Source: Planctomycetota bacterium
GTDB lineage: Bacteria > Planctomycetota > UBA11346
Reading direction: 5' to 3'
Assembly (NCBI GenBank): GCA_013816485.1
Contig: JACDEI010000010.1
Span: 54,854 to 118,853 of the forward strand
Length of the DNA: 64,000 nt
Shown: piece after piece, positions 2,670 through 46,000 of the stretch
How the letters are laid out: each line of letters begins with the position of its first letter
How positions within the stretch are numbered: position 1 is the stretch's first letter
Translations under genes and position numbers: made by a program
The notes under the pieces: model-generated
What the model saw: only the letters and a program-made list of their open reading frames with translations
The model's database searches: none
What the model was told of the DNA's origin: nothing

Positions 2670-5558
2670 TCAGTTGGTCGGCACGTAGTTGATGGTGTTG
2701 AAGATCTCTTGGCTGATGGCGTCGCCGCCCTTGGTGGCGATGCGGAACTTGATGTTCATCTGCATCACTACCTGGACCGGCATTTCCAGGAACACCGTCT
2801 TGCCGTCAGCCCCGAGGGTGGCGTTGGCGATCTCGACCTTGTCGTGGCCCTTCTCTTTATCGCCGGAACTCGGCTTGAACTCAGGTGAACCGTAGTTGCT
2901 GGTCCACGCGTAGTTCCACACCTCGACCTGGTAGTTGTCCTTGTTGCTGGCCTCGGCCTTGTCGAGTTCGGTGGTGAACTTCAGCTCGACGCCGTTCTTT
3001 TTGATCGACAGGGCGGAGACCGAGTTGAACGCCTCGCCGGTGAAGCGCACGCGTTGCAGGCCGCCGTCCTTGGCGCCGTTGGTCTGCCAACCCTTCAGGC
3101 CGGCGACGTAAAGCTGGCCGTCCTTGGGGTTGAAACGACCGCGCGCGATGCCGGTGTTGAACGCCAAGGGCATTTGCACCGTGCCGCCCTGCCAACCGCA
3201 GTTGTTCGCGGCGTCGGGGATTTTCTCCATTAGCACCATGTGCAGATTGGACCTGCCGTAGCTGATGTGCAGCAGGCGCTCGCTCAGCGGGCCCCACTTG
3301 TCGCCCTTGGGTGACCACACCTGACCGCCGTTGGAATTGTCGATGCGGTGCGGGGTCCAGTAGATTGGGCGGGTGTAGTCGGTGGGCGGCGGATTCACGT
3401 GCGAGAGATCTGGCACGCCGACGAACATCGGGATCTTGTGCGGCGGGATGGCGGTGACGCGGCACTGCGGGGTCCAGGTCCCTTCGTTGTCACCGACGGT
3501 GACGAGATTGTCCGGACCGCCGTAGCCCGAGCCGTTGGGCGCGCGCACACCGGTTCCGATGACCTCGAGTTTCGAACCGTCCTTGCTCACGCGCATGACG
3601 GTGCCGGCGTGTTCGCTGATGGTTTCCCAACCGCGACCGCCTGGGCGCACGGGTCCGCCCTTGGCGAAGATGAAGTTGCCCTGGCCGTCGGTGTGCAGGT
3701 CGAGGACGAATTCATGGAAGCCTGGGGTGGCGTGCATGTCGTTGTTGAACGACTCGAAGAAGTCCGCCTCGCCATCCTTGTTGAGGTCGTGAAAGCGGGT
3801 GAGCTGGTCTTTGCCGATGGTGTAAACCACGTCGTCGACGATTTTCAGGCCAAGGGTCTGGTAGAGACCGGCGGCGTACCGCTTCCAGGTCAGCTTCTCC
3901 AGCTTGTCATCGATGCCGGAGCACACCCACACGTCGCCGTTCCAGGTCGACACCGCCGCGCGGCCGTCGCTGAAGAAGTCGACGCCAGCGAGGCGCAGCT
4001 TGGAACCGTAGGGATTGTCATCCGGCAGGGTGATGGTGTCGACGGTGTAGCCACCTTCATTCTTGCCGACCGCGCCCTTGGTCTCGACGGTCTGCGCCCA
4101 CAGCGCCGGACCGCCCTTGGTGAGCGTCGCCGGATCGGTGGCCGCGCTCGCGCCTTTTGCCGCGGCGGCGTCAGCGCTCAATGCGAGCTTGAACACACCG
4201 GCAGCGCCGGCGGGCACCTTCATCAGGATGCGATTGCCGTCGACCGCGAGCGTCACGCCCGCGGGCGCACCGACGAGCGCGGCCGAGACCGCGTCAGCGC
4301 CGGACTTGAGGGTGGCGACGCCGCCCTCGACCGCGCCAGCGCCGTTCGGTAGTTCGCTTACCACCATGGTCGAGGCGGCGGCGAACTTGGCGAGATTGAA
4401 GGTGCGGGTGATGATCTTGCCGTCGGCTTCCAGGCTTGGCAGTTCGAGCACCGCGGAACCGCCGACGGTGTAGCTCAGCACGACCTTGTCGCCGTTGAGG
4501 TAGAGGCCTTTGTATTGCGCCCAGTTTTTCGGCAGTGGGCCGAACGGCTCACTGCGTGGATCAGCGAAACTGTCGCCCTTCGACCAGCCCGGTCCGGCGC
4601 TGGTGCCGAACAGCTGATCGCCAGCGACCGTGGGTCCAGCGGGCCCGTGGCTGCCGTCATAGGCGATGCCCTTCATGTTCAGCCAGCCGCCGGTCCAGCC
4701 GGCAACGTAGCGCATCAGATCGGTGTCGAAACACACGCCAGCCTTGAGGCCCTCTTTGCCCACACCGGCACCGATGTTGATGGCGATACCTTTGTTGGCG
4801 ATGTTCTTGTCCGGCCACTGACCGGTGATGGTGGCTGAGTGGACCGGGCCGGTGTCCATCTTGTAGAACCACGCGCCCTGGTCGCCTCCGCCTCCGCCTC
4901 CGCCTCCGCCTCCAGCCTTGATCTTCTTCCACGCGGCTTCGTCCCACGAGATCGCGGCGAGCGCGGCCTTGTCGTAGGCCAGCGCCGAGGTCGGGATCGG
5001 CTGTTCGTCGCCGCCGGGTGCTTTCCAGAAGGCCTTGCAGCCACCGCCGCCGCCGCCTTGGAAGTATTCGATGAGGATGGCGTGGTCGCCGGCGGTCAGT
5101 TCGACCTCACCGGACTTCTTTTCCATGCCGTGCGAACCACCGTTGTCGACCACCTGCTTGCCGTCGATGAAGAGGCGCGAGCCGTCATCCGACTCGGTGA
5201 TGAAGGTGTACTTGCCGGCGGTGGCGATTTTCACCACGCCGCTCCAGCGGACCACGAAGTTGGTGGCGAGCTTGCTCCCGTGAAAATTGCCTTCGACGCT
5301 GTCGAAGTTCACGGTCTTATCGACGCGCACCAGGGTCGGCTTCTGACCATCGAGCTTGATGAAGTCGCCAACGCCGTCCTTCTGCGCGAAGTACTCACCG
5401 ATCAGACCGGGTTGCAGATCGGCAGCGCTGACCGCGGCCATGGCGGCAAGCAGGGGGATGAGGGCGAGCGAACGAGTGGTGCGGAACAGTCCCATGGTCA
5501 GTGGATCCTTAAAGGGTGCGGGGAAGGATGAGTCCATACCCGGTTGCGGGCACGGCAT
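2670..5558 (-). CDS. Secreted PA14-domain plus beta-propeller 'membrane-bound dehydrogenase domain' protein (glucose/sorbosone-dehydrogenase-like fold), with poly-Gly linkers.
   Basis: Signal-like N-terminus MGLFRTTRSLALIPLLAAMAAVSAA. PA14-like block GLIGEYFAQKDG...KYTFITESDDGSRLFIDGKQVVDNGGSHGMEKKSGEVELTAGDHAILIEYFQGGGGGG. The propeller-like region contains YGSKLRLAGVDFFSDGRAAVSTWNGDVWV...TVGDNEGTW. Architecture matches the PVC-type dehydrogenase family that usually carries a cytochrome c module; here that module is in the next gene. Confidence 0.7.
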   Translation of the reverse strand: MPCPQPGMDSSFPAPFKDPLTMGLFRTTRSLALIPLLAAMAAVSAADLQPGLIGEYFAQKDGVGDFIKLDGQKPTLVRVDKTVNFDSVEGNFHGSKLATNFVVRWSGVVKIATAGKYTFITESDDGSRLFIDGKQVVDNGGSHGMEKKSGEVELTAGDHAILIEYFQGGGGGGCKAFWKAPGGDEQPIPTSALAYDKAALAAISWDEAAWKKIKAGGGGGGGGGGDQGAWFYKMDTGPVHSATITGQWPDKNIANKGIAINIGAGVGKEGLKAGVCFDTDLMRYVAGWTGGWLNMKGIAYDGSHGPAGPTVAGDQLFGTSAGPGWSKGDSFADPRSEPFGPLPKNWAQYKGLYLNGDKVVLSYTVGGSAVLELPSLEADGKIITRTFNLAKFAAASTMVVSELPNGAGAVEGGVATLKSGADAVSAALVGAPAGVTLAVDGNRILMKVPAGAAGVFKLALSADAAAAKGASAATDPATLTKGGPALWAQTVETKGAVGKNEGGYTVDTITLPDDNPYGSKLRLAGVDFFSDGRAAVSTWNGDVWVCSGIDDKLEKLTWKRYAAGLYQTLGLKIVDDVVYTIGKDQLTRFHDLNKDGEADFFESFNNDMHATPGFHEFVLDLHTDGQGNFIFAKGGPVRPGGRGWETISEHAGTVMRVSKDGSKLEVIGTGVRAPNGSGYGGPDNLVTVGDNEGTWTPQCRVTAIPPHKIPMFVGVPDLSHVNPPPTDYTRPIYWTPHRIDNSNGGQVWSPKGDKWGPLSERLLHISYGRSNLHMVLMEKIPDAANNCGWQGGTVQMPLAFNTGIARGRFNPKDGQLYVAGLKGWQTNGAKDGGLQRVRFTGEAFNSVSALSIKKNGVELKFTTELDKAEASNKDNYQVEVWNYAWTSNYGSPEFKPSSGDKEKGHDKVEIANATLGADGKTVFLEMPVQVVMQMNIKFRIATKGGDAISQEIFNTINYVPTN

Positions 5559-5864: not shown

Positions 5865-6665
5865 ATGTCCGCCGATCCGTTCCAACCCATGTCCATGCCA
5901 CTTGTGATCTCCGCCATCGTGGCGGTGGTGCTGCTGGTGACCCACGCCGGCATCGCGCTGGCCATTGTCCGCGGTGTTGCTGGCGACGACGGCGAGGCGC
6001 GCGGCGCGGGCAAACGTTTCTTCCTACGCGCGGCTTTGGTGCTGATGGCGCTGACCTTGGCCCTGGTGCCAGTGACCGCGTGGATGTTGGCACCCGCTGG
6101 CCTGACCACGCGCACCCTCGCGGCCATCGGCCTGGGGCAGCTCTGCTTGCTGGTGAGCATCATGTGGAGTTGGCGCGAACTGGCGGCGCCCGCACATGGC
6201 AGCCCGCGCACCACGCATGCCTTCGGCGCACTGGTGCTGTTCTGCGTGTCGCTGGTGGTGGCGAAGGTGGTGCATCAGGACGAGACCCGTCATGCGTACC
6301 TGGTGGCCAATCCGCCGAAGCTGATGGTGGTCGAAGCTCTGCCGCTGACGACGCCACCGGCCACGACACCACCGGTGACCACATCGACCACGCCACCCGC
6401 CGACGTCGACCCGGAATTCGCCAAGGGCGAAAAGGTTTTCAAGTCGGTCTGCATCGTCTGCCACGCGCTGGACACGCGCCTGGTCGGTCCGCCGATCCGC
6501 GAACTCGTCAAAGACTACCAAGGCAATCCCGACGGCATCGCCGCGTGGGCCAAGGCCCCGGGCAAGAAACGCCCAGATTATCCGCCGATGATTGCCGTGC
6601 CGCTGCCGGATGCAGACCTGCGGGCGGCGGGCGTGTACATGCTGAAGGTCGCGGAGACGAAGTAG
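5865..6665 (+). CDS. Polytopic membrane protein with a C-terminal mono-heme cytochrome c domain.
   Basis: Four predicted TM helices at the N-terminus, a TTPPATTPPVTTSTTPP linker, then KVFKSVCIVCHALDTRLVGPP (CxxCH). It is divergent from the PA14 gene. Confidence 0.6.
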   Translation: MSADPFQPMSMPLVISAIVAVVLLVTHAGIALAIVRGVAGDDGEARGAGKRFFLRAALVLMALTLALVPVTAWMLAPAGLTTRTLAAIGLGQLCLLVSIMWSWRELAAPAHGSPRTTHAFGALVLFCVSLVVAKVVHQDETRHAYLVANPPKLMVVEALPLTTPPATTPPVTTSTTPPADVDPEFAKGEKVFKSVCIVCHALDTRLVGPPIRELVKDYQGNPDGIAAWAKAPGKKRPDYPPMIAVPLPDADLRAAGVYMLKVAETK

Positions 6666-6770
6666 GGCGACTGGCGATCGGCGACTGGCGATCGGCGACT
6701 GGCGATCGGCGATCGGCGACCCGCGACCGGCAACCGGCGACCGGCGACCGATGGCCCATCGCCCATCGCC
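6666..6770. repeat. Tandem repeat tract (GGCGACTGGCGATC)x3 followed by degenerate GGCGACC / CCATCGC repeats, between the convergent cytochrome gene and queF.
   Basis: Sequence ggcgactggcgatcggcgactggcgatcggcgactggcgatcggcgatcggcgacccgcgaccggcaaccggcgaccggcgaccgatggcccatcgcccatcgcc. The two ends are partly complementary (ggcgat / atcgcc). Confidence 0.7.
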
Positions 6771-6783
6771 AACTCCACCGCCA

Positions 6784-7335
6784 TCAAACCGTTCGCGGAT
6801 ACTGCGGCGCATATTTCCCAGGCGCGTATCCGCTCAAGCGATCGCTCAACAATTTCTGCATCGCCTCGTCGCTCGGCTCGGCGTACTGCACGAATGGCCA
6901 GATCGCGATCGAGCCGCGGCTGTCGAACTGGCCGATGACTTCGAGGTAGCGTGGGGCAAGCAGGCGTACCAGGTCATCGCAGATGATGCGGCAGACGTCC
7001 TCGTGGAAGTCGCCGTGCATGCGGAAGCTGCCGAGGTACTCCTTGAAGGATTTGCTTTCGACGAGCTGCGTTGCTGGGATGTAGTTGAGGTAGATGTCAG
7101 CCCAGTCCGGTTGCCCAGTGACGGGGCAGAGGCTGGTGAAGCGCAGGCAGTTGTTCGATACCCACATGCGGTCGCAGACGAATTCGCGGCTGGTCGACAG
7201 TGGCACTGCTTCGAGCAGTTTGGGGGCGTAGGTGAATGGCGTGTCGCGGCGTTTGCCGAGCGTCGCGCTGGGCAAATGTTTGCCGGTGCGGCTGGTGCTC
7301 TTGGAGGTCTGGGCGGATGAACGGGCGCGGGCCAT
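6784..7335 (-). CDS. queF: NADPH-dependent 7-cyano-7-deazaguanine (preQ0) reductase QueF.
   Basis: Contains FTSLCPVTGQPDWADIYLNY (catalytic Cys) and the ESKSFKEYLGSFR motif. The start may be internal. Confidence 0.85.
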   Translation of the reverse strand: MARARSSAQTSKSTSRTGKHLPSATLGKRRDTPFTYAPKLLEAVPLSTSREFVCDRMWVSNNCLRFTSLCPVTGQPDWADIYLNYIPATQLVESKSFKEYLGSFRMHGDFHEDVCRIICDDLVRLLAPRYLEVIGQFDSRGSIAIWPFVQYAEPSDEAMQKLLSDRLSGYAPGKYAPQYPRTV

Positions 7336-10202: not shown

Positions 10203-10328
10203 TGCAGAAGGCAGAAAGCAGAATGCAGAAAGCAGAAGGCAGAAGGCAGAAAAATCAGGACGGTCGGACTACGGTATGGCTTTTCCGTAAACGCCACTCT
10301 GCACTCTGCACTCTGCATTCTGCCTTCG
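10203..10328. repeat. Tandem-heptamer inverted-repeat element: (GCAGAAn)x7, a 46-nt spacer, then (CACTCTG/CATTCTG)x4. It ends 11 nt before the coaD start codon.
   Basis: Left arm tgcagaaggcagaaagcagaatgcagaaagcagaaggcagaaggcagaaa, right arm cactctgcactctgcactctgcattctgccttc. The right arm is the reverse complement of the left. Confidence 0.75.
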
Positions 10329-10837: not shown

Positions 10838-11305
10838 ATGGCCGAAAGCCTGCGCGGTAATCCACATCCCACGCCCAAACTCGGCCCGCTGCTGATCGAC
10901 GAGGCCTATATCGCAGCGATCGAGAAGCTGGTCGAATACGCCTCGCAGGCGAGCACCGACCTCCAATCCCAGCACGGCCTGGAGGTTTCTTTCGATGACG
11001 CGAACACGGGAGTCAAAGCGCTCGATCAGATCATCGAACGCGTGCGGGCACGCAACTGGCCGGCCGATTCCAGTCCGTTAAAGTGGCACGCCAACGCGCT
11101 CGGTGCGGTGCTGGCGTGCATGATGCTGCAACGCGGCAACTCCATCACCGCGTTCCGCTCCAAGGACAACTTCACCAATTTCTCGGTCTACATCCCGAAC
11201 ACCAAGGTGGAGTACTTCCCGTTTCACAAGATCCAGAAGTGCCTGAGCAGCACCGACACGGGAACGGTGGCGGCGTATTATGCGGAGTTTGACGGGGACA
11301 TGTGA
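10838..11305 (+). CDS. Hypothetical protein.
   Basis: 155-aa ORF in an operon position 20 nt after coaD. No family recognised. Confidence 0.5.
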   Translation: MAESLRGNPHPTPKLGPLLIDEAYIAAIEKLVEYASQASTDLQSQHGLEVSFDDANTGVKALDQIIERVRARNWPADSSPLKWHANALGAVLACMMLQRGNSITAFRSKDNFTNFSVYIPNTKVEYFPFHKIQKCLSSTDTGTVAAYYAEFDGDM

Positions 11306-11308: not shown

Positions 11309-11450
11309 ATTGCCCCGGTACGAGGGGTACGAGGGGTACGAAAAGTCCGAAGGGTCCATTGAGCAGAAGAACAGAGTGGTGCAGTGGTCTGCGGACTTTT
11401 CGTACCCCTCGTACCCCTCGTACCCCTCGTACCCCTCGTACCGGGGCAAT
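11309..11450. repeat. Giant imperfect hairpin built from tandem 9-mers, GGTACGAGG on the left arm and GTACCCCTC on the right, exactly filling the gap between the convergent stop codons at 11305 and hisB 11450. Likely a bidirectional terminator or stabiliser.
   Basis: Left arm attgccccggtacgaggggtacgaggggtacgaaaagtccg at 11309-11349. Right arm gcggacttttcgtacccctcgtacccctcgtacccctcgtacccctcgtaccggggcaat at 11391-11450, which is the reverse complement. The loop is about 40 nt. Confidence 0.75.
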
Positions 11451-12034
11451 TATCCCAACAAACCCTTCGTCGACGGCAGCTCCGTCCCCGTCACTTTGAT
11501 CGCCTGACGTAATGCCCGTGCGGTCGCCTTGAACGCCGCTTCGACGATGTGGTGCGTGTTACGACCACACTGCTGGTGCAGGTGCAGGCAGATGCGCGCG
11601 TGATCGGTGAGGCCGCCGAAAAATTCGGGAACCAACTCCACCGCCCAGGTGCCGAGCATCGCCGCTTCGGGTTTCAAATCGTAGACCAAGTACGGTCTAC
11701 CGCTAACATCGACCGTAGCGGTGACCAGCGCCTCATCGAGCGGGCAGGCCATGTTGCCGAAACGTTCGATGCCGACGCGGTCGCCGAGCGCCTGCTTCAG
11801 GCACTGGCCCATGACGATGCCGACATCCTCGGTGGTGTGGTGCCCATCGATGTGCAGGTCGCCCGTGCAACTGACCTTGAGCGCGGTGCCGGAGTGTTTG
11901 CCGAGCGCGTCGAGCATGTGGTCGAGGAAACCGATGCCGGTAGAGATCTCCGCTGGAGCCGCGCGATCGAGATCCCAGGTGACGGTGATGTCGGTTTCTT
12001 TGGTCTTGCGGCTGACCGTGGTGATGCGCGGCAT
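11450..12034 (-). CDS. hisB: Imidazoleglycerol-phosphate dehydratase.
   Basis: TKETDITV...GIGFLDHMLD...HIDGHHTTEDVGIVMG...HHIVEAAFKATARAL. Confidence 0.9.
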   Translation of the reverse strand: MPRITTVSRKTKETDITVTWDLDRAAPAEISTGIGFLDHMLDALGKHSGTALKVSCTGDLHIDGHHTTEDVGIVMGQCLKQALGDRVGIERFGNMACPLDEALVTATVDVSGRPYLVYDLKPEAAMLGTWAVELVPEFFGGLTDHARICLHLHQQCGRNTHHIVEAAFKATARALRQAIKVTGTELPSTKGLLG

Positions 12035-12061
12035 GAGCTCTCCTGGTGCGGCGAGAGCCTA

Positions 12062-12345
12062 GCAGGCTGCTGAAAAACAGCAGCCTGCTAGGTTCGGAAA
12101 AATCCGGGGGCGACCTGCGGTCGCTATTTTCCCCGGATTTCTCCGAACGGCCTTTTTCCAAAGGGGGCCAAGACGGCCCCCTTCACCCCCCGCAGGCTGC
12201 TGAAAAACAGCAGCCTGCTAGGTTCGGAAAAATCCGGGGGCGACCTGCGGTCGCTATTTCCCCCGGATTTCTCCGAACGGCCTTTTTCCAAAGGGGGCCA
12301 AGACGGCCCCCTTCAACCCCCGCAGGCTGCTGAAAAAGCATACTG
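12062..12345. repeat. 130-bp tandem repeat, 2.2 copies. Each copy carries three strong nested hairpins. It lies in the divergent region between hisB and the diguanylate cyclase operon.
   Basis: Copies begin at 12062, 12192 and 12322 (partial). Each unit holds gcaggctgctgaaaaacagcagcctgc (an 11-bp stem), aaatccggggg-cgacctgcggtcg-ctatttccccggattt (nested stems), and ggggccaagacggcccc. Confidence 0.8.
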
Positions 12346-12458
12346 CGGGGGGTGGCAGCGGGTGGCTTGCATCCCACGACTGGGCGTGCGCGGTCGACAT
12401 GACATCATCTGCGGTCCTGGTGCTTGCCTCGTGGTCTGCCCCTGGCGAACATGCATAG

Positions 12459-13784
12459 ATGACGCGCGGCCTCCAACCGAGCATAGCTTCGCTGATCGGT
12501 CTCTGCCTGGGGTCCGGGAGCGCGGCGTCGGTATCGTTGCTCGTTCCTGAGTGGTCGCCGCTGCTGGGGATAGTGGCGGCAGTGGTCGGTTGTGGTGCCT
12601 GGGTACTGGCTGGCGCGGCGGTGTACGGGCGGGCGGGGATGCTGTTGTTTCTCCCGGCGTTGGCCGCGCTGCCGGGTGGGGGTTGGTTGGCCCTGGGCGG
12701 TTGGACCGTCGCGGCGGCGATCGGCCTGTGGGTGTTGCACCAGCGCGCCGCGGTCGGCGATCCGGCGCAGATCCGCAGCTTGCGCGCCGAACTGCGCGAT
12801 GCCGAACATGAACGCACGCTGCTGCACCGTCACATCCAACGTTATCCGGTGCTGCTCGAAGCCTGTCTTGAACTCTCCGCCGTGCGTGAGCTCGGCCAGT
12901 TCGCCCACGTGTTGTGTCAAGGCACCCGCGAACTGCTGCCGGGCATCACCTGCGTGCGGGTGTTCCTGGGCACCATCGAACGGCAGAGCTGTTTGGCCTC
13001 GGTCAACGCCGAGGGCAATCCGCACCCGGGCGAGGCCGGCGTCGACCAGTTCTATGTCGCGTGCGAAGCCCGGCCGCTCATCCGTCGCAACGGTCGCGAG
13101 GTCCATTTGCTCATCCCGCTGCGTGGAGACCGCCGGCAGGGCGATAACAATGAAACGCTGCGCGGCGTGTTGGAGGTGCAGCTCACCACCGACGATGTCG
13201 GCGATCGTTTGGCGCTCGAACTGCTCGGCGCGCTCGGCCGCCTGGGTGGTCTCGGATTGGCGGCGGTCGATCTGGTGAACCAGGCGCGTTCGTTGGCGCT
13301 GCGCGATGACCTCACCGGCCTGTTCGGCCAGCACGAGTTCCTCCGTCGTCTTGATGAGCAGGCGGCGGCCTGTCGTCGTCATGACGTCGAGCTGGGTGTC
13401 ATCATGTGCGACATGGACCACCTCAAACGGTTCAACGATCGCCATGGCCATCCCGCCGGCGACACGGCCCTGCGCCAAGTCGCCGCGATCCTCACCCGGG
13501 TGCTGCCTGACGACGCGATCGTCTGCCGTTATGGTGGTGAGGAGTTCGCCGCCATCATCGTCAGCCGTCCGCTGGCGCGCATGGAACTGATCGCCAAAGC
13601 GGTACGGGCCGCGATCGCCGATGAGCCGGTAGCGGTCGGTGAACAAGCCGTGCGGGTAACTGCATCGCTCGGCGTGGCGGTGATGGGTGCCGAGGAGAAT
13701 CCGCGTGCGACCTTGCAACGCGCTGATGCCGCGTGTTACGCCGCAAAGGCGGCCGGCCGTAATCGCGTCGAGCTCGCGTCATGA
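12459..13784 (+). CDS. Membrane-anchored diguanylate cyclase (GGDEF domain) with an N-terminal TM/sensor region.
   Basis: Hydrophobic N-terminus. GGDEF core DDLTGLFGQHEF...CDMDHLKRFNDRHGHPAGD...RYGGEEFAAI. Confidence 0.8.
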   Translation: MTRGLQPSIASLIGLCLGSGSAASVSLLVPEWSPLLGIVAAVVGCGAWVLAGAAVYGRAGMLLFLPALAALPGGGWLALGGWTVAAAIGLWVLHQRAAVGDPAQIRSLRAELRDAEHERTLLHRHIQRYPVLLEACLELSAVRELGQFAHVLCQGTRELLPGITCVRVFLGTIERQSCLASVNAEGNPHPGEAGVDQFYVACEARPLIRRNGREVHLLIPLRGDRRQGDNNETLRGVLEVQLTTDDVGDRLALELLGALGRLGGLGLAAVDLVNQARSLALRDDLTGLFGQHEFLRRLDEQAAACRRHDVELGVIMCDMDHLKRFNDRHGHPAGDTALRQVAAILTRVLPDDAIVCRYGGEEFAAIIVSRPLARMELIAKAVRAAIADEPVAVGEQAVRVTASLGVAVMGAEENPRATLQRADAACYAAKAAGRNRVELAS

Positions 13785-15028
13785 ATCCACGCGTGGTCGT
13801 CATCCTGCCGGTGGTGCTGACCGTCGCACTCGCGGGTTGGGGTGTGGCGCAGGGGCAGCTCTGGCTGGTGGCACCCGCAATGGTCGCGGTGGTCGCGGCC
13901 ATCGCCTTGATCGTCGGTCTGCGTCCGGTGATCAGCACCGGCACCCGCACGGTGGCTCTGGCCGCCGATCCACGTCTGCTCGACATCAAGCGCAAGAGTA
14001 TCACCGAGGAACTGGCGGTGCTGGAGGACGCGCAGGAGCTCCAACGCGGAGTGTTCGAGGTCAGCGCCGAACTGGTCGGTTGCGTCGATGAGGTGGATGC
14101 GCGTCACCGCTTTGCCGCCGCCATGCGCCGCTACTGGTCATGCAGCACGGTCGATCTGGTGGTGTGGGAAAAAGGGTCGTGGCGTGGGTTGGGCGCGCCC
14201 GCCACTGGCGATGTCCCGGCCCTCACCGGTCCGGTGCTGCTCCCCGATCAACCGGGCGGCGATCTGGTGCTCGACCTCAGCCCAGGCGTCGACGGCCAAG
14301 CAGCGCTGGTGCTGCGTCAGGCGCACTTGCAACCGAGCCTCGCCGGACGCTCGCCCGCAGATCAGCGCTACGTCGCCGAGGTGTTGCGCACCCAATTGTC
14401 CTTGTCACTGCGCCGGGTGGTGCTCTACGCCGGGCTGCAATCGCTCGCGCGCGTCGATCCGCTTACCGGTGCCAACCGCCGGTGGTACGGCGACACCCGC
14501 TTGACCGAACTCTGCGATGGCGGCGAGGTGGTGGCGGTAGCGATGGTCGACATCGACCATTTCAAATCCATCAACGATGGGTTCGGCCATGCCGCGGGCG
14601 ACCAGGTGCTCGCCGCCGTCGGCCGCGCACTGACCGCGCAATTGCGTACGGGCGACCTGGTGTCGCGTTACGGTGGCGAAGAGTTCCTGGTCGTCCTGCC
14701 GGACACGCCGCCCGCCGGCGCCATGCAGGTGGCCGAACGTCTGCGCGAAGCGGTCGAGGCGATCGCCGGGATGCCGAAGCTGGTGACGGTGTCGATCGGG
14801 GTGGCGGCCTGCTATCAGGACGAAACCGCCGCCAGTCTAGTCAGTCGCGCCGATGCCGCGCTCTACCAGGCCAAAACCGGCGGTCGCAACCGCGTGACCA
14901 TGGCCGATGACGGCGGTGCCGAGGGTTTCCTGCGCATCACGGCGCGCCGCACCAAGCAGGCTTTGGGCAACGAAAGTGCGACCTATCGCGCGATGACCGC
15001 TGCCCGTCCGACACCACCGCCGCAATAA
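13781..15028 (+). CDS. Second membrane-anchored diguanylate cyclase (GGDEF). Its start overlaps the previous stop (ATGA).
   Basis: DPLTGANRRWYG...VDIDHFKSINDGFGHAAGD...RYGGEEFLVVL...ALYQAKTGGRNRV. Confidence 0.8.
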   Translation: MNPRVVVILPVVLTVALAGWGVAQGQLWLVAPAMVAVVAAIALIVGLRPVISTGTRTVALAADPRLLDIKRKSITEELAVLEDAQELQRGVFEVSAELVGCVDEVDARHRFAAAMRRYWSCSTVDLVVWEKGSWRGLGAPATGDVPALTGPVLLPDQPGGDLVLDLSPGVDGQAALVLRQAHLQPSLAGRSPADQRYVAEVLRTQLSLSLRRVVLYAGLQSLARVDPLTGANRRWYGDTRLTELCDGGEVVAVAMVDIDHFKSINDGFGHAAGDQVLAAVGRALTAQLRTGDLVSRYGGEEFLVVLPDTPPAGAMQVAERLREAVEAIAGMPKLVTVSIGVAACYQDETAASLVSRADAALYQAKTGGRNRVTMADDGGAEGFLRITARRTKQALGNESATYRAMTAARPTPPPQ

Positions 15029-18770: not shown

Positions 18771-18926
18771 CCGCAGAGGACGCAGAGGACGCAGAGGACG
18801 CAGAGGTAAGAGGAGGGCCGCAGAGCGGAACTCCTCTGGTTTGGAAGCCCGATTGCAGAGAGCCAAAAGAAAAGCAGCAGAGAGGTCTTCTCTGCGGCCC
18901 TCTTCGAACCTCTGCGTCTCTGCGGT
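18771..18926. repeat. Tandem-heptamer inverted-repeat element: (GCAGAGGAC)x4, spacer, then CCTCTGC/GTCTCTGC repeats. It lies between the convergent TatD-family stop (18750) and the SNF2 stop (18957).
   Basis: Left arm ccgcagaggacgcagaggacgcagaggacgcagagg. Right arm cttctctgcggccctcttcgaacctctgcgtctctgcgg. There is an inner gccgcagagcgg...cctctgg pair. Confidence 0.75.
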
Positions 18927-25391: not shown

Positions 25392-26495
25392 ATGGCACGC
25401 ATCGTCGTCGGTATGAGTGGAGGCGTGGATTCGAGCCTCAGCGCGGCGCTGCTCAGCGAGCAGGGCCACGAGGTGGTCGGCGTGACCATGCAGCTGTGGC
25501 CGTGCGCCGAACAGGATGGCGGTTTCACCCGCGAGGATTCCTGCTGCTCACCGACCGAGACCATTGATGCCCGGGCGGTGGCACAGGGCGCTGGCATCCG
25601 TCACTACGTCATCGATCAGGTCGACGATTTTCGTCGTGGAGTGGTCGACGGTTTCGTCGAGGCCTACGCCAATGGCCAGACGCCGAATCCGTGTGTGCGC
25701 TGCAACGAGAAGATCAAGTTCGGCTCGTTGTGGGAACACGCCAAACGCCTGGGCGCGCAGCAGGTCGCCACCGGTCACTACGCCCGCGTGGAACAGGTCT
25801 TCGACCGTCATGTGCTGCGCACCGCGGTCGACCGCAACAAGGACCAGACGTATTTCCTCTTCTCGCTGACGCAGGAACAACTCGCTGCCGCACATTTCCC
25901 CGTCGGCGGCCTGACCAAGGACGAGGTGCGCGCGGCCTCGCGTCAGCGTGGCATCGTCACCGCCGACAAACACGAATCACAGGACATCTGCTTCATCGGC
26001 AAGGAAGGCGTCGCTGGCTTCCTGCGTGAACGTATTCCCGAAGCATTCGTCCGCGGTGCGATCAGACATCGCGATGGCCGCGTGCTGGGTGAACACCAGG
26101 GCTTGGCCGCCTACACTATCGGTCAGCGCAAGGGCCTGGGCGTCGCGTGGCACGAACCGTTGTTCGTCGTGGGTCTCGACCATGCGACCAACACCGTGGT
26201 GCTCGGTGAGCGTGACGCGCTGCTGGTCGATGAATTGCCGCTGACCGATTGCACCTGGCACCTGGGCGAGTTGCCCGCCAGCGGTCTCGAGTGCCGCGTA
26301 CGCACGCGTCATCGCGGCACGCCGGTCCCGGCGCGCATCGTCGCGCGTCCCGGCGGCGGTCCTGGAGGATTGCCGAACGCCACCGTGCGTTTTGCTGAAC
26401 CACAACCGCGCACCAACGCCGGCCAGGCCTGCGTGGCCTACGACGAGCGCGAGGAGCTGTGCCTTGGCGGCGGATGGATCGCGCCGGCATCGTGA
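25392..26495 (+). CDS. mnmA: tRNA-specific 2-thiouridylase.
   Basis: MARIVVGMSGGVDSSLSAALL (PP-loop), CVRCNEKIKFG, DQTYFLF. Confidence 0.9.
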   Translation: MARIVVGMSGGVDSSLSAALLSEQGHEVVGVTMQLWPCAEQDGGFTREDSCCSPTETIDARAVAQGAGIRHYVIDQVDDFRRGVVDGFVEAYANGQTPNPCVRCNEKIKFGSLWEHAKRLGAQQVATGHYARVEQVFDRHVLRTAVDRNKDQTYFLFSLTQEQLAAAHFPVGGLTKDEVRAASRQRGIVTADKHESQDICFIGKEGVAGFLRERIPEAFVRGAIRHRDGRVLGEHQGLAAYTIGQRKGLGVAWHEPLFVVGLDHATNTVVLGERDALLVDELPLTDCTWHLGELPASGLECRVRTRHRGTPVPARIVARPGGGPGGLPNATVRFAEPQPRTNAGQACVAYDEREELCLGGGWIAPAS

Positions 26496-26610
26496 GCGCA
26501 CCCCAGGTGCGGTGGACACCTGTGGGATCCCGTGGGAAACGCGCAAACAGTGGGCACGGGTGGCCGGTAGTACGTCCACTCACGAACCTCCACCCCTCCA
26601 GGATCATCCC

Positions 26611-27183
26611 ATGCGTTATGCCTTGCTGCCCGCGCTCCTGCTCACCATCGGTGCCACCGTCGCCCAGGCCGCCGACACCTACACCATCGATCCGGTGACC
26701 AGCTCGGTGCTCTTCCGCGTGAAGCACTTCAACGTCGCGTACTTCCACGGCACCTTCAACGTGGTGAAGCCGGAGTCGTCGCTGGTGTGGGATGAGACCA
26801 CGCCCGCCAACAGCAAGGTCGAGATCATCGTCGACGCGGCGAGCGTCGATTCGCGCAACGAGAAACGTGACGCGCACCTCGCCAATCCCGACTTCTTCGA
26901 TGCGAAACAATTCCCGCTGCTGAAGTTCACCAGCACCGCCGTGAAGGCGGTCGACGCCACGTATTTCGAGGTCGCCGGTCAGTTCACCATGCATGGCGTG
27001 ACCAAGCCGCTGACCATCACCGTGACCAAGACTGGCGAGGGCAAGGACCCGAAGGGTGCGCACCGCATCGGCTTCGAGACCGTCTTCATGGTCAAGCGCA
27101 GCGACTACGGCATGGACAAGATGCTGGAGAACATCGGTGACGAGGTGACCATCACCTTCTCGACCGAAGGCATTCGCAAATAA
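26611..27183 (+). CDS. YceI-family periplasmic protein.
   Basis: Signal MRYALLPALLLTIGATVAQA. YceI core YTIDPVTSSVLFRVKHFNVAYFHGTF...SRNEKRDAHL. Confidence 0.8.
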   Translation: MRYALLPALLLTIGATVAQAADTYTIDPVTSSVLFRVKHFNVAYFHGTFNVVKPESSLVWDETTPANSKVEIIVDAASVDSRNEKRDAHLANPDFFDAKQFPLLKFTSTAVKAVDATYFEVAGQFTMHGVTKPLTITVTKTGEGKDPKGAHRIGFETVFMVKRSDYGMDKMLENIGDEVTITFSTEGIRK

Positions 27184-27240
27184 ACCCATTCGCAAATAAA
27201 CCCATTCGCAAATAAACCCATCCGCAAATAAATGCGGTCC
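27171..27240. repeat. 16-bp tandem repeat (TAAACCCATTCGCAAA) x3.5 spanning the yceI-family stop codon. It ends in a small hairpin, ccgcaaataaatgcgg.
   Basis: cattcgcaaa|taaacccattcgcaaa|taaacccattcgcaaa|taaacccatccgcaaa|taaatgcgg. Each unit re-creates the last three codons plus the TAA stop. Confidence 0.8.
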
Positions 27241-27379
27241 CTGGCGGTAGATCACGGTTCATGCGTGCCCATTCGAGGGCACCCTGGTGCGTCCCAGTGC
27301 GCGGAAGCGGCACATGGCCACATGTGGTGATCCGGGCTGCGGCTTGCGCAGCGGTGAACGAACCGACCATCCCGCCGTC

Positions 27380-27814
27380 ATGCGCGTGCTGTTGTGGTTC
27401 TCATTGGCCGTACTGATCGGCTGCAAGGCGCATCAACCGCCGGATGATGCGGTGGCGGTACGCCTGCGCAGCGTGGTGGTGGACACCTGCACCGCCATGC
27501 GGATGGATCAGCAACCCAGCGGACGCGTACTCGATGATCAGGTCGGCCTGCTGACCATGCGCCTTTCAGCGGACCAGGTGCAGAAAATCACTGGCGGCAC
27601 CATCGATCGGGCGGTGGTGGTTCAGGGTTATCGCGCGGCGCTGGCGCGGCGTGCTGAGCGCCAATCGCGCAGCGCACCACCACGCCTGCTGGTCTTCCTG
27701 GTCGATCACCAGCCACAGTGGTCCAACGACCAGACGTTGCTCGCCGCGGCGTTGCTCGCGCAATACGAGCACGAAGCCAAGCTCGCGGCCCCGCCGCCCA
27801 CGCTGAACAATTGA
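27380..27814 (+). CDS. Hypothetical lipoprotein.
   Basis: MRVLLWFSLAVLIGC (lipobox LIGC). The start could lie further upstream (27287). Confidence 0.4.
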   Translation: MRVLLWFSLAVLIGCKAHQPPDDAVAVRLRSVVVDTCTAMRMDQQPSGRVLDDQVGLLTMRLSADQVQKITGGTIDRAVVVQGYRAALARRAERQSRSAPPRLLVFLVDHQPQWSNDQTLLAAALLAQYEHEAKLAAPPPTLNN

Positions 27815-32482: not shown

Positions 32483-35400
32483 ATGCCTCCGTTCGACCCA
32501 GACCAACCGGAAGACCGCCTCCTGCACGAGGCGGAAGAACTGATGCGCCAGCGGCGCTTTCAGGATGCGGTGACGCGCTACCAGGATCTCTGTCACCAAT
32601 CGCCGACCGACTTGTGGGCCAACCTTGGCTATGTCAGCGCGCTCGAATGCGCCGGCAATGTCGCCGAGGCGGAGCAGGCGCTCGAAGAAGCCACTGCTGG
32701 TCACCGGCGTTCAGCCCCGCTGCACCGCTTCCGTCACCTGTTCTTCGTCCGGCGCGAGGACCTGAAGCGCGCGGCCGTCAGCCAGGAGGCGTTGTCGCTC
32801 GACATCCCCGACGAGGGGCCTGAGGACCAGCTCGCCGACCTCTACTTCAACCAGGGCCGCTACCACGAGGCGCGCGGCGAACTCGAACGCCTGCTGCGCG
32901 ACAGTGCGCTTGACCGTGAGGATCGTGCCGATCTCAAGGCCAGCGTGGTCGCCCGTGTCGGCGCGTGCCTGCGCCAGAGCGGCGAGTTCGAGCCGGCGCG
33001 GGAACGCCTGATCGAAGCGCTCGCGCTCGAGCCTGGCAACCACTGGACGCTCTCCGAACTGGCCGAGTGCGAACGCGCGCTCGGTAATGTCGCGCAGGCG
33101 CGTCGGCGTTACCGCGAATCGTTGGAGGCCAACGGCGACGATCACTGGACGCGTGGGCACCTCGCCCAGCTCGAATGCGAAGACGGCAATCTCGACGAAG
33201 CGATCAAACTCTACGAGCAGATCCTTGCGGTCGAACCCAAGGCCGCATGGGCCAAGGTCGAACTGGCGCAGGTGGTGGCGGACAACGATCGCGCGCGTGC
33301 GACCCAACTGCTCGCCAGCGCGCTGGAGGACGACCCCAATTATCCGTGGGCGCATGCCCAACTCGGCAACCTCGCGCGTCGTGCCGGGCGTCTGGACGAA
33401 GCGCGTCTGCATTATCAGCGCGCCGCCGCCGCCGCGCCGAGCGCGACCTGGGTGTTGCACGAACAAGCTGATGTCTGCCGCCAACTCGGGCGCATGCAGG
33501 AGGCCTACACCCACCTCGAACACGCGCGCGGACTCAATCCCTACGACGCGGTGACCTTCGGTTATTTCGCCGACCTGCTGCGCCACGAAGGCAAACAGCG
33601 CGAAGCGCTGGCGAATCTGGAGAAAGCGGTCGAGATCGATCCCGCCTACACCTGGGCGTGGCGCGAGCAGGCCGAGCTCAAGGCGCTCGCCGGGCGGCAC
33701 GACGATGCCGAGGCGGCGTACAAGAAGGCCTGCGAACTCGAACCCGGCGAGTCGATCAACGATGGCCTCAAGGCCTTCCTGCTGCGTTGCCAGGGCCGGC
33801 GCGACGCGGCGATCCCGTACCTCGAACGTGCGGTCGAAAACCAGAAGGACTACCTGTGGGCGTGGCGCGAGCACATCGACCACTGCTTCGCTGGTGGGCG
33901 CACGGATCAGGCCGAGACCGTCGCACGGCAGGCGCTGGTCGCGCTGCCCGACACGCCACCGCTGCTCGCCCTGCTCGCGGAGGCCTTGCGTAAACAGGGC
34001 CGCCGCAAGGAGGCCGCCGAGGTCGCGGCCAAGGCCCTCACCATCGTCAGCGAAGCGCCGCAGTTGTGGGCGATCCAGGCGGAGATCGCGGCGGAGGACG
34101 GTGATCTGGTAAGTGCCCTGACGTCAGCCAAACGTGCGGCGGAACTCGATCGTGGCGCGGAGTACCAGGCGTTGCACGCCCACCTGCTGATCGCCAACAG
34201 CCAGGACCGTCAGGCTGATACCATCGTCACCGCCCTGCTGGCTGCGCCGCAACCGGTGCTCGCGGCCTACGAACTGGCGGCGACCCTGGCCGAACGCCGC
34301 GAGCAACGCGACCAGGCGATCCGCTGGTGTGTGCAGGCGCTCGAGGGTGCCTACGCCGACGAGCCGCGCCTGCTGGTGCGTCGTGCACGTCTGCAGTTGG
34401 TGGGCCTGGATGTCACCAGCGAAGCGGAGCAGACCGCGTCGATCATCGCTCCGCTGCGTCCGTTGTTCGAACGCAGCGCCGGCGTGCCTTGGCGTGAACT
34501 TGCGCAGGTCCTGGCCACCGCGCGGCAGCCGGTGCTGGCGCGTCGTGCGGCGCACCAGCATCTGTTGGCGACTGCTGCTGGGGATCAGAGCCGCGCGTGG
34601 ATGGTGTTGGCGGAACTGGAACTGTCGCTCGGTCATCCGACCGATTCGCAGCAGGCGCTCGATCAGGCGTTGCGGCACGATCCGCAGTCGATGCCGGCGC
34701 TCATCCTGGGTGCGGTGCTGGCCGAGCAGCGTGGCGATCTGAGTTTGGCGATCACTCACCTGGAACAGCTTGATCGCATAATCGCCACCAATGACCCAGG
34801 GGTCGAGGCCGGCAGCAACGAAGCCGTGCTGCACCGCCAGCTCGCGGTGCTCTACGAACGTGCCGGCCGCCACAGCGATGCGGAAGCGATGTGGTCGCGC
34901 ATCGTCAGTGATCATCCCACGCATCTGCCGCACCAGGCCGAACGCTGCTGTTTCCTGCTGCGACGTGGCCGTGGTGCCGAAGCCCAGGCGGCGGCGGGCG
35001 AACTGCTGCCGGCGCTCGGCGAACGTCATGCCACGGCACCGGAGACCCAGCGTCTGCTCAAGGATCTCGCGATTCACGCCGCCACCTCCGCCGGTGCGCG
35101 AGCGGGCATCGCGGTGTTGGAAGCGGCTGATGGCCACCTGGTGGTCACCAACCGGCTGTTGCTCGCACAGCTCGCGATGCTGGTCGAGGCGCGCGACCTG
35201 GCGACGCGCCAACTCGATCTGGTCGAACAGGTGGAGCCGAGCAACCGCGCTGCGCGCTTGCAGCGTATCCGCCTGCTGGCCCAGACCCGGGTCTACGACC
35301 GCGCGCTGACGCTGGCGGAAACCCTGTGGCGCGAGGACGAGGACGATCAGGAAGCCGCGACGCTCTATAGCGAATGCTTGGCGATCGGCGGACGCAGCGG

Positions 35401-35881
35401 CGAGGCCTTGGAGCTGCTCGACCGCGTCACGGCGAAAACGCCGCCGACCACCGACTGTGGACTGGTCAGCGCGTTGCTGGCGTTGGAGGTGCATGGCGAA
35501 GCGGCTTGCCTGACGCGCCTTGGCCGCCTGACGCCACCGGTGACCCGTCCACCGGTGGCCCGTGTGGTGGTGGCGGCTTGGCCCGATGCCTGGGCCAAGC
35601 CCGATGCGATGCAGGTGGCGACGCGCGAGGATCTCCACGGTCTGCCGCCATTTCCGCGCCTAGCACACCGTCTGTCCCGCGCGCTCGCCCGCGCCGGCCG
35701 CAACGATCTGGCCAGCGCAGTGCTGCTGACGACTGCACGTCGGGTGCAGTCGCTCGAGGAGCGGGCGCTGCGCGCCGCAGCGGTACCGTACCTGATCCGC
35801 AACGGCGAGCGCCGGCGCGCCTGGAAGATCGCCATCGCCAGCCGTTCGCTGGGTGCCCTGCTGCGCTGCCTGTGGCCATGA
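32483..35881 (+). CDS. Large tetratricopeptide-repeat (TPR) protein, 1132 aa.
   Basis: More than 20 recurring 34-aa W-LG-Y-A-F-A-P repeats, e.g. AWANLGYVSALECAGNVAEAEQALEEA and WAHAQLGNLARRAGRLDEARLHYQRAA. Confidence 0.8.
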   Translation: MPPFDPDQPEDRLLHEAEELMRQRRFQDAVTRYQDLCHQSPTDLWANLGYVSALECAGNVAEAEQALEEATAGHRRSAPLHRFRHLFFVRREDLKRAAVSQEALSLDIPDEGPEDQLADLYFNQGRYHEARGELERLLRDSALDREDRADLKASVVARVGACLRQSGEFEPARERLIEALALEPGNHWTLSELAECERALGNVAQARRRYRESLEANGDDHWTRGHLAQLECEDGNLDEAIKLYEQILAVEPKAAWAKVELAQVVADNDRARATQLLASALEDDPNYPWAHAQLGNLARRAGRLDEARLHYQRAAAAAPSATWVLHEQADVCRQLGRMQEAYTHLEHARGLNPYDAVTFGYFADLLRHEGKQREALANLEKAVEIDPAYTWAWREQAELKALAGRHDDAEAAYKKACELEPGESINDGLKAFLLRCQGRRDAAIPYLERAVENQKDYLWAWREHIDHCFAGGRTDQAETVARQALVALPDTPPLLALLAEALRKQGRRKEAAEVAAKALTIVSEAPQLWAIQAEIAAEDGDLVSALTSAKRAAELDRGAEYQALHAHLLIANSQDRQADTIVTALLAAPQPVLAAYELAATLAERREQRDQAIRWCVQALEGAYADEPRLLVRRARLQLVGLDVTSEAEQTASIIAPLRPLFERSAGVPWRELAQVLATARQPVLARRAAHQHLLATAAGDQSRAWMVLAELELSLGHPTDSQQALDQALRHDPQSMPALILGAVLAEQRGDLSLAITHLEQLDRIIATNDPGVEAGSNEAVLHRQLAVLYERAGRHSDAEAMWSRIVSDHPTHLPHQAERCCFLLRRGRGAEAQAAAGELLPALGERHATAPETQRLLKDLAIHAATSAGARAGIAVLEAADGHLVVTNRLLLAQLAMLVEARDLATRQLDLVEQVEPSNRAARLQRIRLLAQTRVYDRALTLAETLWREDEDDQEAATLYSECLAIGGRSGEALELLDRVTAKTPPTTDCGLVSALLALEVHGEAACLTRLGRLTPPVTRPPVARVVVAAWPDAWAKPDAMQVATREDLHGLPPFPRLAHRLSRALARAGRNDLASAVLLTTARRVQSLEERALRAAAVPYLIRNGERRRAWKIAIASRSLGALLRCLWP

Positions 35882-36242
35882 CAACGGCGGCCATGACAAC
35901 GGCGGCCATGACAACGGCGGCCATGACAACGGCGGCCATGACATCTGTGGTGATGACATGAGTGGCCATGATCGCCAAAGGCGCCCGCGTGATCAGGTGC
36001 CCGACCAGGGATCAGTACTGTGGAACGCGGTGCCGTGGTGGCATCTGCTCGGCACTGCCCTGGTGAGCGGACTCATCGCCGGCGGAGGTTTCTGGTGGTC
36101 GGGTGTGGATCATAGCGCAAAGGGACCGGTGTTCCTGATGGCCATCGCAGCGATCTTCGCCTGCATCGCGATTGGCTGCCTGGTGCTGCTCGTCTGGCAT
36201 GGGGTCCTGCGTTGGCGACGACCAGCGCATTGCCCCTCTTGA
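35853..36242 (+). CDS. Small two-TM membrane protein with an N-terminal His-rich (HDNGG)4 repeat. The start is uncertain (any of several in-frame codons between 35853 and 35958).
   Basis: ...GHDNGGHDNGGHDNGGHDNGGHDICGDDMSGHD..., then LLGTALVSGLIAGGGFWWSG and FLMAIAAIFACIAIGCLVLLVW. Confidence 0.4.
   Translation: MPCCAACGHDNGGHDNGGHDNGGHDNGGHDICGDDMSGHDRQRRPRDQVPDQGSVLWNAVPWWHLLGTALVSGLIAGGGFWWSGVDHSAKGPVFLMAIAAIFACIAIGCLVLLVWHGVLRWRRPAHCPS
35877..35951. repeat. 15-bp tandem repeat (CCATGACAACGGCGG)x4 plus one degenerate copy. It starts at the TPR stop codon and encodes (HDNGG)n in the frame of the downstream small membrane protein.
   Basis: ccatgacaacggcgg x4 then ccatgacatctgtgg. The unit length is divisible by 3. 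Each unit also contains an ATG in another frame. Confidence 0.8.
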
Positions 36243-37822: not shown

Positions 37823-37832
37823 AGGGCACGTT

Positions 37833-37972
37833 CCGGAGTCCGGAGTCCGGAGTCCGGAGTCTTGTGGATTCCGACCAATGCGTCTGCGTCCGTGCGCGTG
37901 ACGTCGTGGTTATCTGCTCGGCGGTGGCGTTGGACCTCGGGACCCCGGATCCCGGACCCCGGACCCCGGACT
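37833..37972. repeat. GTCCGGR-type tandem-heptamer inverted-repeat element: (CCGGAGT)x4, a 78-nt spacer, then (GACCCCG)x4. It lies between the metallophosphoesterase stop and the trpF start.
   Basis: Left arm tccggagtccggagtccggagtccggagtc. Spacer begins cttgtggattccgaccaatg. Right arm gggaccccggatcccggaccccggaccccggac. The arms pair perfectly with G-U wobble on the bottom-strand transcript. Confidence 0.8.
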
Positions 37973-45857: not shown

Positions 45858-45864
45858 GCGGCAC

Positions 45865-46000
45865 GTCCGGAGTCCGGGGTCCGGAGTCCGGAGTCTTGTG
45901 GACGCGAGCCACCTCACGACTGGTGACCAATCATGACGTCGATCACGCACGTTGACCTCAAGCGCAAGGGACCCCGGACCCCGGACCCCGGACCCCGGAC
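45865..46000. repeat. GTCCGGR-type tandem-heptamer inverted-repeat element between the flotillin stop and the giant AAA+ gene start.
   Basis: Left arm gtccggagtccggggtccggagtccggagtc. Spacer starts cttgtggacgcgagcc...gaccaat. Right arm gggaccccggaccccggaccccggaccccggac. The spacer 5' end (cttgtgga...gaccaat) is shared with the 37833 copy. Confidence 0.8.

Follow-up and report, generated by a model that had tools for sequence, protein, structure and literature searches.

The tandemly repeated tract between hisB and two GGDEF genes in the 64-kb stretch of DNA analyzed here (hereafter, the window) is likely to be a small (~125-175 nt), non-coding, interspersed repeat of Planctomycetota, MITE- or REP/BIME-like in character, that was duplicated once internally and has no dedicated role in the control of hisB or the diguanylate cyclases. 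We favor this mobile-element reading on account of the dispersal of the element, its presence and absence at the orthologous site, its inverted ends with TA flanks, the variety of its genomic contexts, a corresponding duplication elsewhere, differences between strains, the lack of coding potential and the lack of an Rfam family.

The tandem array and its flanking genes

Tandem Repeats Finder reported a head-to-tail repeat at positions 12062-12337 (period 130 nt, 2.1 copies, 98% matches, score 538), and a repeat search assigned positions 12062-12191 to unit 1 and 12192-12321 to unit 2. These data bear out the two full 130-bp copies described in a first-pass annotation of the window, as well as the divergence of 2-3 nt given there, the units differing by two substitutions at unit positions 69 (T/C) and 125 (C/A). 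A partial third copy of 25 bp had also been listed; this copy exists, but it comprises only 16 nt (12322-12337), with divergence setting in after GCAGGCTGCTGAAAAA. All ORFs that run across the tract are short and shift frame. We rejected the idea of a tRNA-like or coding repeat, 130 not being divisible by 3.

The array occupies the intergenic region between divergent genes, and its flanks are the start codons that had been annotated. On one side lies hisB, coding for imidazoleglycerol-phosphate dehydratase (11450-12034, minus strand; an ORF with a Pfam IGPD match, named HisB of a Planctomycetes bacterium), and on the other lie two overlapping GGDEF-domain genes on the plus strand (12459-13784 and 13781-15028). 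By its HisB homologues, the organism is an uncultured Planctomycetes MAG. The hisB start codon is separated by 27 nt from the repeat and by 24 nt from a CTAG at the edge of the repeat, and a Shine-Dalgarno sequence, AGGAG, is found on the minus strand at ~12040-12044. Between the array and the ATG of the first GGDEF gene there are 121 nt of non-repeat sequence, including a block, TCCTGGTGCTTGCCTC, that is conserved in relatives. A consensus scan, to which planctomycete promoters may not conform, returned no sigma-70 promoter in 12035-12458 on either strand, and a terminator scan returned no intrinsic terminator at any of the hairpins described below.

All three hairpins previously proposed for each unit were present; these and the other elements of the tract are given here without strand. 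In copy 1, H1 (12062-12088) reads GCAGGCTGCTG-AAAAA-CAGCAGCCTGC and has a perfect 11-bp stem (12062-12072/12078-12088) that reaches 18 bp when the flank is included. This 27-nt sequence had no occurrence in 100 shuffles of the window, and in the family described below H1 serves as the terminal hairpin module, being found also solo or at both ends of an element. H2 (12092-12148) consists of an 18-bp outer stem with one A·C (12092-12109/12131-12148), a nested GCGACC-TGC-GGTCGC and a TATTTT bulge, and is followed by a T-rich linker, GGCCTTTTTCCA (12149-12160), that recurs in all subfamilies. H3 (12161-12183) has a 9-bp stem, AAGGGGGCC-AAGAC-GGCCCCCTT; across the type A subfamilies it is a G5-6/C5-6 hairpin with a conserved AGAC loop and covarying closing pairs. 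Unit 2 (12192-12321) repeats this arrangement, with H1 at 12192-12218, H2 at 12222-12278, the linker, H3 at 12291-12313 and CAACCCCC at 12314-12321.

The array ends in a degenerate terminal hairpin, H1* (12317-12351), of sequence CCCCCGCAG-GCTGCTGAAAAAGCATA-CTGCGGGGG. The 16 nt that follow its C run (12322-12337) form the direct repeat that bounds the duplication, and on the minus strand it resembles the right terminal hairpin of the family, H1b (GCAGTATGC-TTTTTC-AGCAGCCTGC). At the left edge of the element is CTAG (12058-12061), the presumed insertion target, with TA at its center. The left end of the window copy is thus canonical, whereas its right end is degenerate and has no CTAG, which precludes the reading of a target duplication here. 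The intergenic region folds far more stably than its shuffled versions, with z = -12.3 on the plus strand and -11.5 on the minus strand. The fold energy of the whole region was by coincidence the same on both strands (-251.8 kcal/mol), and strands were therefore compared per element.

The same locus in related genomes and copies elsewhere

Further assemblies of the same species differ in copy number at this locus. Two of them, L003 (GCA_020063985.1) and L008 (GCA_020063705.1), contain two copies each with SNPs of their own, including a 1-nt deletion in the H3 loop of unit 2. The assembly represented by L001 and L004 has one copy, and the contigs L002 and L005 end inside the repeat. A single-copy assembly and another that breaks within the repeat are what an assembly artefact would lead one to expect, but the window, L003 and L008 are independent assemblies, and all three run across two copies that can be told apart by unit-specific differences. 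The tandem duplication is not an assembly artefact, an explanation to which we attach virtually no credence. The single copy of L001 may be a true allele or a short-read collapse.

In four relatives with HisB sequences 94, 90, 88 and 86% identical to that of the window (L009-L012), the divergent hisB/GGDEF-GGDEF order is kept and the 130-nt unit is absent. One of them, L011, has a bare GAGCCTAG at the site with unrelated sequence directly after it, and this CTAG would be the best candidate for an empty site. At the same CTAG, L009 harbors a different hairpin-rich insert of ~89 nt that ends in CCAG, and L010 has a short H1-like remnant, CTAGCAGGATGCGGAAAAAGCACACGGCG, resembling the window sequence minus the unit.

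Inside the 64-kb window, neither blastn with a word size of 7 nor nhmmer with the family profile found other copies; that a single locus with the element was seen within these 64 kb of the genome speaks against a dispersed element. Copies were, however, present elsewhere. A different Planctomycetota MAG (L040) contains a 91%-identical H2-H3-H1 block at an unrelated locus, flanked by the 3' end of a menD-like ORF and by a prepilin-like gene. This was the only true relative among the matches of the H2 stem pattern used to scan a genome collection, most of which were generic terminator-like palindromes in unrelated phyla. A metagenome scan with an 18-mer from the H2 apex, GACCTGCGGTCGCTATTT, returned 61 loci, 48 of which carry 53 true copies, the other 13 being chance matches in AT-rich contigs. 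About 45 of the 53 copies belong to a single metagenome, Ga0163144, and apparently to one genome, in contigs of 20-254 kb and at a density of roughly one copy per 50-80 kb. For the HemE protein encoded on one of these contigs, the best named relatives are in Planctomycetes/Planctomycetota MAGs; its nearest homologue is 73% identical, too far removed for intergenic sequences to be compared. Other subfamilies were found at different loci in at least five further metagenomes (L063, L069/L074, L085, L092, L107, L094 and L109). The first-pass annotation had counted uniqueness of the unit to its locus as evidence against its proposal; the copies at L040 and at 48 metagenome loci show the opposite. 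Two scans of viral contigs, for the H2 and H3 motifs, gave 0 matches. There was no Rfam match for the region or for four related loci (best ~20 bits, against gathering scores of 50-229), in agreement with the initial remark that the tract is not a recognized riboswitch or leader.

Anatomy, conservation, and genomic context of the family

Family elements measure ~125-175 nt and have the module order H1a, H2, T-rich linker, H3, C-run and H1b. In the Ga0163144 consensus (~170 nt), the left flank CTAG is followed by H1a (CAGGCTGATG, a 15-nt loop and CATCAGCCTG), H2 (CCTTCGCGCTCCCCGGGGG[CGACC-TGC-GGTCG]CTATTTTCCCCGGGAAACGCGAAGG) with the T-rich linker, H3 (CCAGGGGGGC-AGAC-GCCCCCCTG) with TAACCCCCC, and H1b (GCAGGCTGC-TTTTTC-AGCAGCCTGC) with TAG as right flank. 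The ends are mutually inverted (CTAGCAGGCTG ... CAGCCTGCTAG; in short form, GCAGGCTG.../...CAGCCTGC). A type B element shares with type A the H1 ends, the T-rich linker and an H3-like hairpin, but has a different central hairpin, and A/B composites with a common middle H1 occur at L083 and L081. H1 hairpins, 25-37 nt in length, are also found solo, in pairs and in mosaics. Elements abut directly at L075, where they are joined at CTAG, and also at L081.

The flanks of 28 complete copies were compared. CTAG was present on both sides in 14 copies, and the central dinucleotide was TA on both sides in 22. Three copies had matching non-palindromic flanks in direct orientation (CCAG/CCAG, CTCG/CTCG and CTAA/CTAA), as predicted by target duplication and not by an inverted terminal sequence. 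In this small sample, an arrangement N-TA-[GCAGG...CCTGC]-TA-N, with a putative 2-bp TA duplication in a preferred CTAG, fits better than a 4-bp duplication.

Covariation analysis, suggested in the first-pass annotation, was run on the family, and the stems were found to covary strongly. For H2, 24 distinct sequences were aligned without gaps and scored on either strand. Changes on both sides were seen in 15 of the 18 pairs of the lower stem; the observed covariation was reached by 0 of 500 shuffles, and slid controls paired only about 36-58%. The lower stems of the subfamilies are wholly different yet complementary (GGTTCGGAAAAATCC, CCTTCGCGCTCCCC, CTGCGGACTTTCCC, CCTTGCGATCCTTC and GCCCGAGAATTCCTGG). 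Compensatory variants also exist, for example, for H3 (GGGGGCC, GGGGGGC and GGGGGTC, each with a matching partner) and for H1 (GCAGGCTGC/GCAGCCTGC versus GCAGGGTGC/GCACCCTGC). Pairing of the H2 lower helix amounted to 88.2% on the window plus strand and 97.2% on the minus strand, a difference that arises because C·A on the plus strand is G·U on the minus strand. All six element variants that were folded were 7-17 kcal/mol more stable on the minus-equivalent strand. This asymmetry, as read from sequence, points to the folding of one particular single strand, RNA or DNA. The H2 apex was invariant in the retrieved copies, but 18 nt of it served as the search pattern, and much of the apex conservation is thus an ascertainment effect.

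The gene context of the copies was established with a simple GC3-based gene caller run around each copy. Intergenic contexts were co-directional in 13 cases (8 versus 5 by orientation of the element), convergent in 8 and divergent in 5, and the copies with called contexts showed no enrichment at gene 3' ends. The neighbors are ordinary housekeeping genes, among them those for HemE, a PP2C phosphatase, a PALP enzyme, fumarase and a tRNA-synthetase-like protein. This distribution fits insertion at available TA/CTAG sites of a GC-rich genome; neither a gene-specific regulator nor a dedicated terminator would account for it.

Elements insert beside start and stop codons. The flanking TAG is the stop codon of the neighbor in at least 12 cases, and there are copies with a start codon 10-20 nt downstream, whichever the orientation of the element (4 versus 3). 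A polar terminator, tolerated upstream of hisB only in the orientation without the U tract, was ruled out by these copies near starts in both orientations. A SPRITE-like or intrinsic terminator was likewise rejected, the terminator scan having no match at H1-H3, the T run beginning only 4-5 nt after H2 and 3' ends not being enriched.

A mobilizing partner was sought in ~0.4 Mb of Ga0163144 loci, which contained no transposase or full-length IS with matching ends and, among 290 predicted proteins, no multi-copy protein. The ORF between two inverted H1 hairpins at L081 encodes HemE, and ten genes located between H1 pairs are housekeeping genes. No Y1 transposase or RAYT-like gene was present among the genes examined in the sampled loci.

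Origin of the array, alternative explanations, and known repeats

The first-pass annotation had proposed, among other options, a small non-autonomous mobile element inserted twice. Mobility is upheld by the dispersed family and by the absence of the unit in relatives, but there was probably one insertion only. The two units have one H1 in common, follow an exact 130-nt register and are bounded by a 16-nt direct repeat, and there is no CTAG junction between them, unlike in the truly abutting elements at L075 and L081. Two separate insertions would leave such a junction between full ends. In another genome and another subfamily, L088 has the structure H1a-H2-H3-H1a-H2-H3-H1b with a period of 139 nt and 2 differences between units, and it is an independent case of the same internal duplication. 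The common H1, the exact register, the lack of a CTAG junction and the parallel in L088 all argue for a single insertion event, with unequal recombination or slippage as the later step. The hairpin at the junction has, in both arrays, the C run normally found before H1b in front of it and then continues as H1a, as expected of an unequal exchange between the common 5' arms of the terminal hairpins.

We propose that an element at the CTAG 24 nt upstream of the hisB start codon had its H1-H2-H3 block duplicated in one event of unequal recombination or replication slippage. The substrate of the exchange would have been the 16-nt direct repeat GCAGGCTGCTGAAAAA, which the left H1 shares with the terminal hairpin on the right, H1*, and the product would be H1-[H2-H3]-H1-[H2-H3]-H1*. 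With its one copy, L001 has exactly the sequence that is predicted for the parent or for a deletion product. With less certainty, mobilization may have occurred in trans through a TA-duplicating DDE transposase of the IS630/Tc1-like type. As to hisB expression, both divergent promoters must fit in ~125 nt in L011, which would place the ancestral hisB promoter beyond the CTAG. Two strongly folding units would now separate the hisB ribosome-binding site from the position of that promoter, and hisB would consequently be transcribed either through the array or from within it. Such an effect on hisB would be incidental, the element presumably having no dedicated function in hisB or diguanylate-cyclase control.

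The alternative of a cis-regulatory leader, riboswitch or operator array that is specific to this locus and serves hisB or the GGDEF operon, close to the structured 5' leader originally suggested, draws on the position of the tract between two divergent start codons and on its strong fold. We regard it as very improbable, because four relatives with conserved gene order lack the unit in the orthologous region, and because it is found elsewhere beside unrelated genes in every orientation, has no Rfam match and varies in copy number between strains. As to the protein-binding array that was also suggested initially, these observations give no link between the element and this particular locus. 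A host-used RNA module spread by duplication (a terminator or insulator, mRNA-stabilizing or processing hairpins, or a small RNA gene), which here would form part of the hisB 5' UTR on the minus strand, would account for the strong covariation of H2 and for plus-strand mismatches that are G·U on the minus strand. The minus strand is moreover the sense strand of hisB here and of both flanking genes in L040, the conserved T run after H2 is terminator-like on the plus strand, and the H2 pattern also matched generic bidirectional terminators in many phyla. Palindromes can, however, retain their complementarity through hairpin-templated repair, without any RNA function. The 8 versus 5 split in co-directional gaps is no orientation preference with respect to neighbors, copies 10-20 nt from start codons in both orientations imply that there is no strong terminator either way, the terminator scan had no site at H2, and 3' ends are not enriched. 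Such a module is highly unlikely.

Two further observations weigh against the MITE reading itself: the covariation far exceeds what a plain MITE needs, and the preference for pairing on one strand is not explained by a cut-and-paste mechanism acting on double-stranded DNA. A Planctomycetota-wide structured module that would be more than selfish DNA and would function in single-stranded form, either as the minus-strand-equivalent RNA or as an ssDNA intermediate of an undescribed, hairpin-guided and CTAG-targeting mobilization, is an unlikely reading. It draws on the covariation of all hairpins, on G·U-compatible mismatches that occur on one strand only in every subfamily and on the invariance of the H2 apex, subject to the ascertainment noted above, across lineages with wholly different lower stems. 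Mobilization of ssDNA by an HUH tyrosine transposase, in a REP/REPIN/BIME-like or IS200/IS605-derived system with H1 as the recognized hairpin and CTAG as the cleavage or target tetranucleotide, is unlikely. It would agree with H1 as a palindrome that has a fixed tetranucleotide at its foot and occurs alone, paired and in mosaic clusters, and both the stability of all six folded variants on one strand and the higher minus-strand pairing of H2 would fit selection on one single strand. In addition, REP families and many tyrosine transposases have been reported in Planctomycetes such as R. baltica (PMC3733652). However, the tag is CTAG and not the GTAG/CGTC that defines the described REP superfamilies (PMC3733652), and the directly matching non-palindromic flanks resemble target duplications, which HUH transposition does not make. 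Orientation showed no bias relative to local GC skew (19 versus 24, a weak test), and a RAYT-like gene was not seen in the sampled loci.

On descriptive criteria, with TA duplication as a possible further trait, we file the element as a new addition to the MITE/REP-like class of interspersed structured repeats. It agrees with MITEs as reviewed (PMC3184786) in being short (<~400 bp) and without a transposase gene, in its dispersed copies, in its terminal inverted repeats and in its presence or absence at orthologous sites. With REP/BIME repeats it shares an extragenic palindrome of 20-40 nt (25-37 nt for H1) that is present in high copy and forms dimers and clusters, but the foot of H1 is CTAG on both sides rather than an unpaired GTAG/CGTC. 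RUP elements of S. pneumoniae duplicate TA and have been proposed to be mobilized by IS630-Spn1, and Correia elements have TA flanks, their transposase being unknown. Like the Correia elements (CREE/NEMIS) of Neisseria and RUP, the family is non-coding and of comparable size (100-170 nt), with inverted ends, TA flanks and stable hairpins, and it has many intergenic copies, often near gene starts, that are present or absent between related genomes. It differs from both in having no sequence similarity to them, in its host phylum, Planctomycetota, and in its architecture, each end being itself a hairpin (H1a, H1b) and two autonomous interior hairpins being present, with strong covariation.

BOX elements of S. 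pneumoniae have the layout boxA-boxB(n)-boxC. Similarly modular and strongly structured, they contain an internal module that can expand in tandem (PMC3184786), and the H1-[H2-H3]x2-H1* array of the window and that of L088 represent the same kind of internal expansion; sequence, host and module content differ, and here the repeated block includes one terminal-type hairpin. RAYT-mobilized REP, BIME and REPIN sequences, families of which have been reported in Planctomycetes (PMC3733652), resemble the element as short extragenic palindromes with a foot tetranucleotide that occur singly, in inverted pairs and in mosaic clusters, and differ from it by the CTAG tag, the longer composites and the duplicated-looking flanks found here, no RAYT having been found in the sampled loci. 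A further likeness is to pneumococcal SPRITE and to ERIC/IRU, which are interspersed, fold into terminator-like structures or long imperfect palindromes and are co-transcribed with their neighbors (PMC3184786).

These data remove a false lead, namely, that histidine biosynthesis or c-di-GMP signaling has a new riboswitch or leader in this tract. They document a repeat family in uncultured members of a phylum for which descriptions of small mobile repeats are scarce; no earlier description of this family was found in Rfam or in the literature searched. The locus itself is ordinary, and only the strand-specific covariation of the family deserves further attention. Short-read assemblies are broken by the family, in that contigs end inside the repeat and tandem units may collapse. 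Because it inserts beside start and stop codons, the family bears on MAG assembly and gene calling and possibly on the expression of neighboring genes.

Long hairpins with tandem-array arms in the intergenic gaps

In many intergenic gaps of the window, tandem arrays of a 7- to 9-nt unit form both arms of a long hairpin that occupies nearly the whole gap and lies just 0 to 23 nt from the adjoining genes. Such hairpins were found at positions 2501-2566, 10204-10327, 11309-11450, 18772-18918, 37832-37971, 45864-46001, 54151-54272, and 58120-58232. In one example, four copies of GGTACGAGG stand opposite five copies of TCGTACCCC in the gap between hisB and the convergent gene 10838-11305. The array-armed hairpins are a class of structured intergenic repeat that is distinct from the 130-nt element and locally more common. 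The last four of them have the unit GTCCGGR/YCCGGAC in common and therefore constitute a dispersed family. In three of these four hairpins, the mismatches between the arms read A.C on the flanking genes' own strand and G.U on the other.

Inserts upstream of hisB and a second element type

In the closest relative (L009), the orthologous gap between hisB and the GGDEF genes (~3800-3975) has a different insert of approximately 89 nt, which occupies the very CTAG where the 130-nt element sits upstream of hisB in the window. This insert consists of CGGGGCACTGCC, ATGGCC-CAAA-TGGCCAT, and TATCGGCAGTGCCCCG, followed by a T-rich linker and then by a C-rich tail that ends in CCAG. It is built in the same general way as the central hairpin (H2) plus linker of the 130-nt element, but the terminal H1 hairpins are absent. 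The CTAG upstream of hisB looks like an insertion hot spot. For the minus strand of the window, folding predicts a small hairpin, GCTCTC...GAGAGC (12037-12058), that would pair the Shine-Dalgarno sequence of hisB; a comparison by eye revealed no conservation of it in the four relatives with the same gene order (L009 to L012).

Among the metagenome loci, we observed a second element type (type B), which has H1 ends, a T-rich linker, and an H3-like hairpin in common with type A, the family with H2 at its center, but a different central hairpin, TATTTTCGCGCGGCGCTGGCGCGCCAATTTTGCGCGAAAACA. Type B elements are located in L098 (5006-5179), L088 (7304-7474), L081 (1-163 and 1268-1445), L083 (1201-1374), and L111 (10402-10578), and composites of type B and type A also occur. 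The Planctomycetota MAG contig that harbors the second copy of the element (L040) additionally contains, at 1757-1803 on the minus strand, a stretch that matches Acido-Lenti-1 RNA of Rfam below threshold (28.4 bits, versus a gathering score of 37; E = 0.005).

Other short tandem repeats in the window

Three further short repeats were noted. The AT-rich 16-mer CATTCGCAAATAAACC (27171-27232; 3.9 copies, 97% matches), in a window whose remainder has 65% GC, lies where ORF 26392-27183 ends (3' end) and in the gap preceding 27287-27814. Twelve copies of GGCGACC (6666-6750) separate genes 5865-6665 and 6784-7335, and 4.7 copies of the perfect 15-mer GGCCATGACAACGGC (35874-35943) are located at the end of a 1,132-amino-acid ORF (32483-35881).
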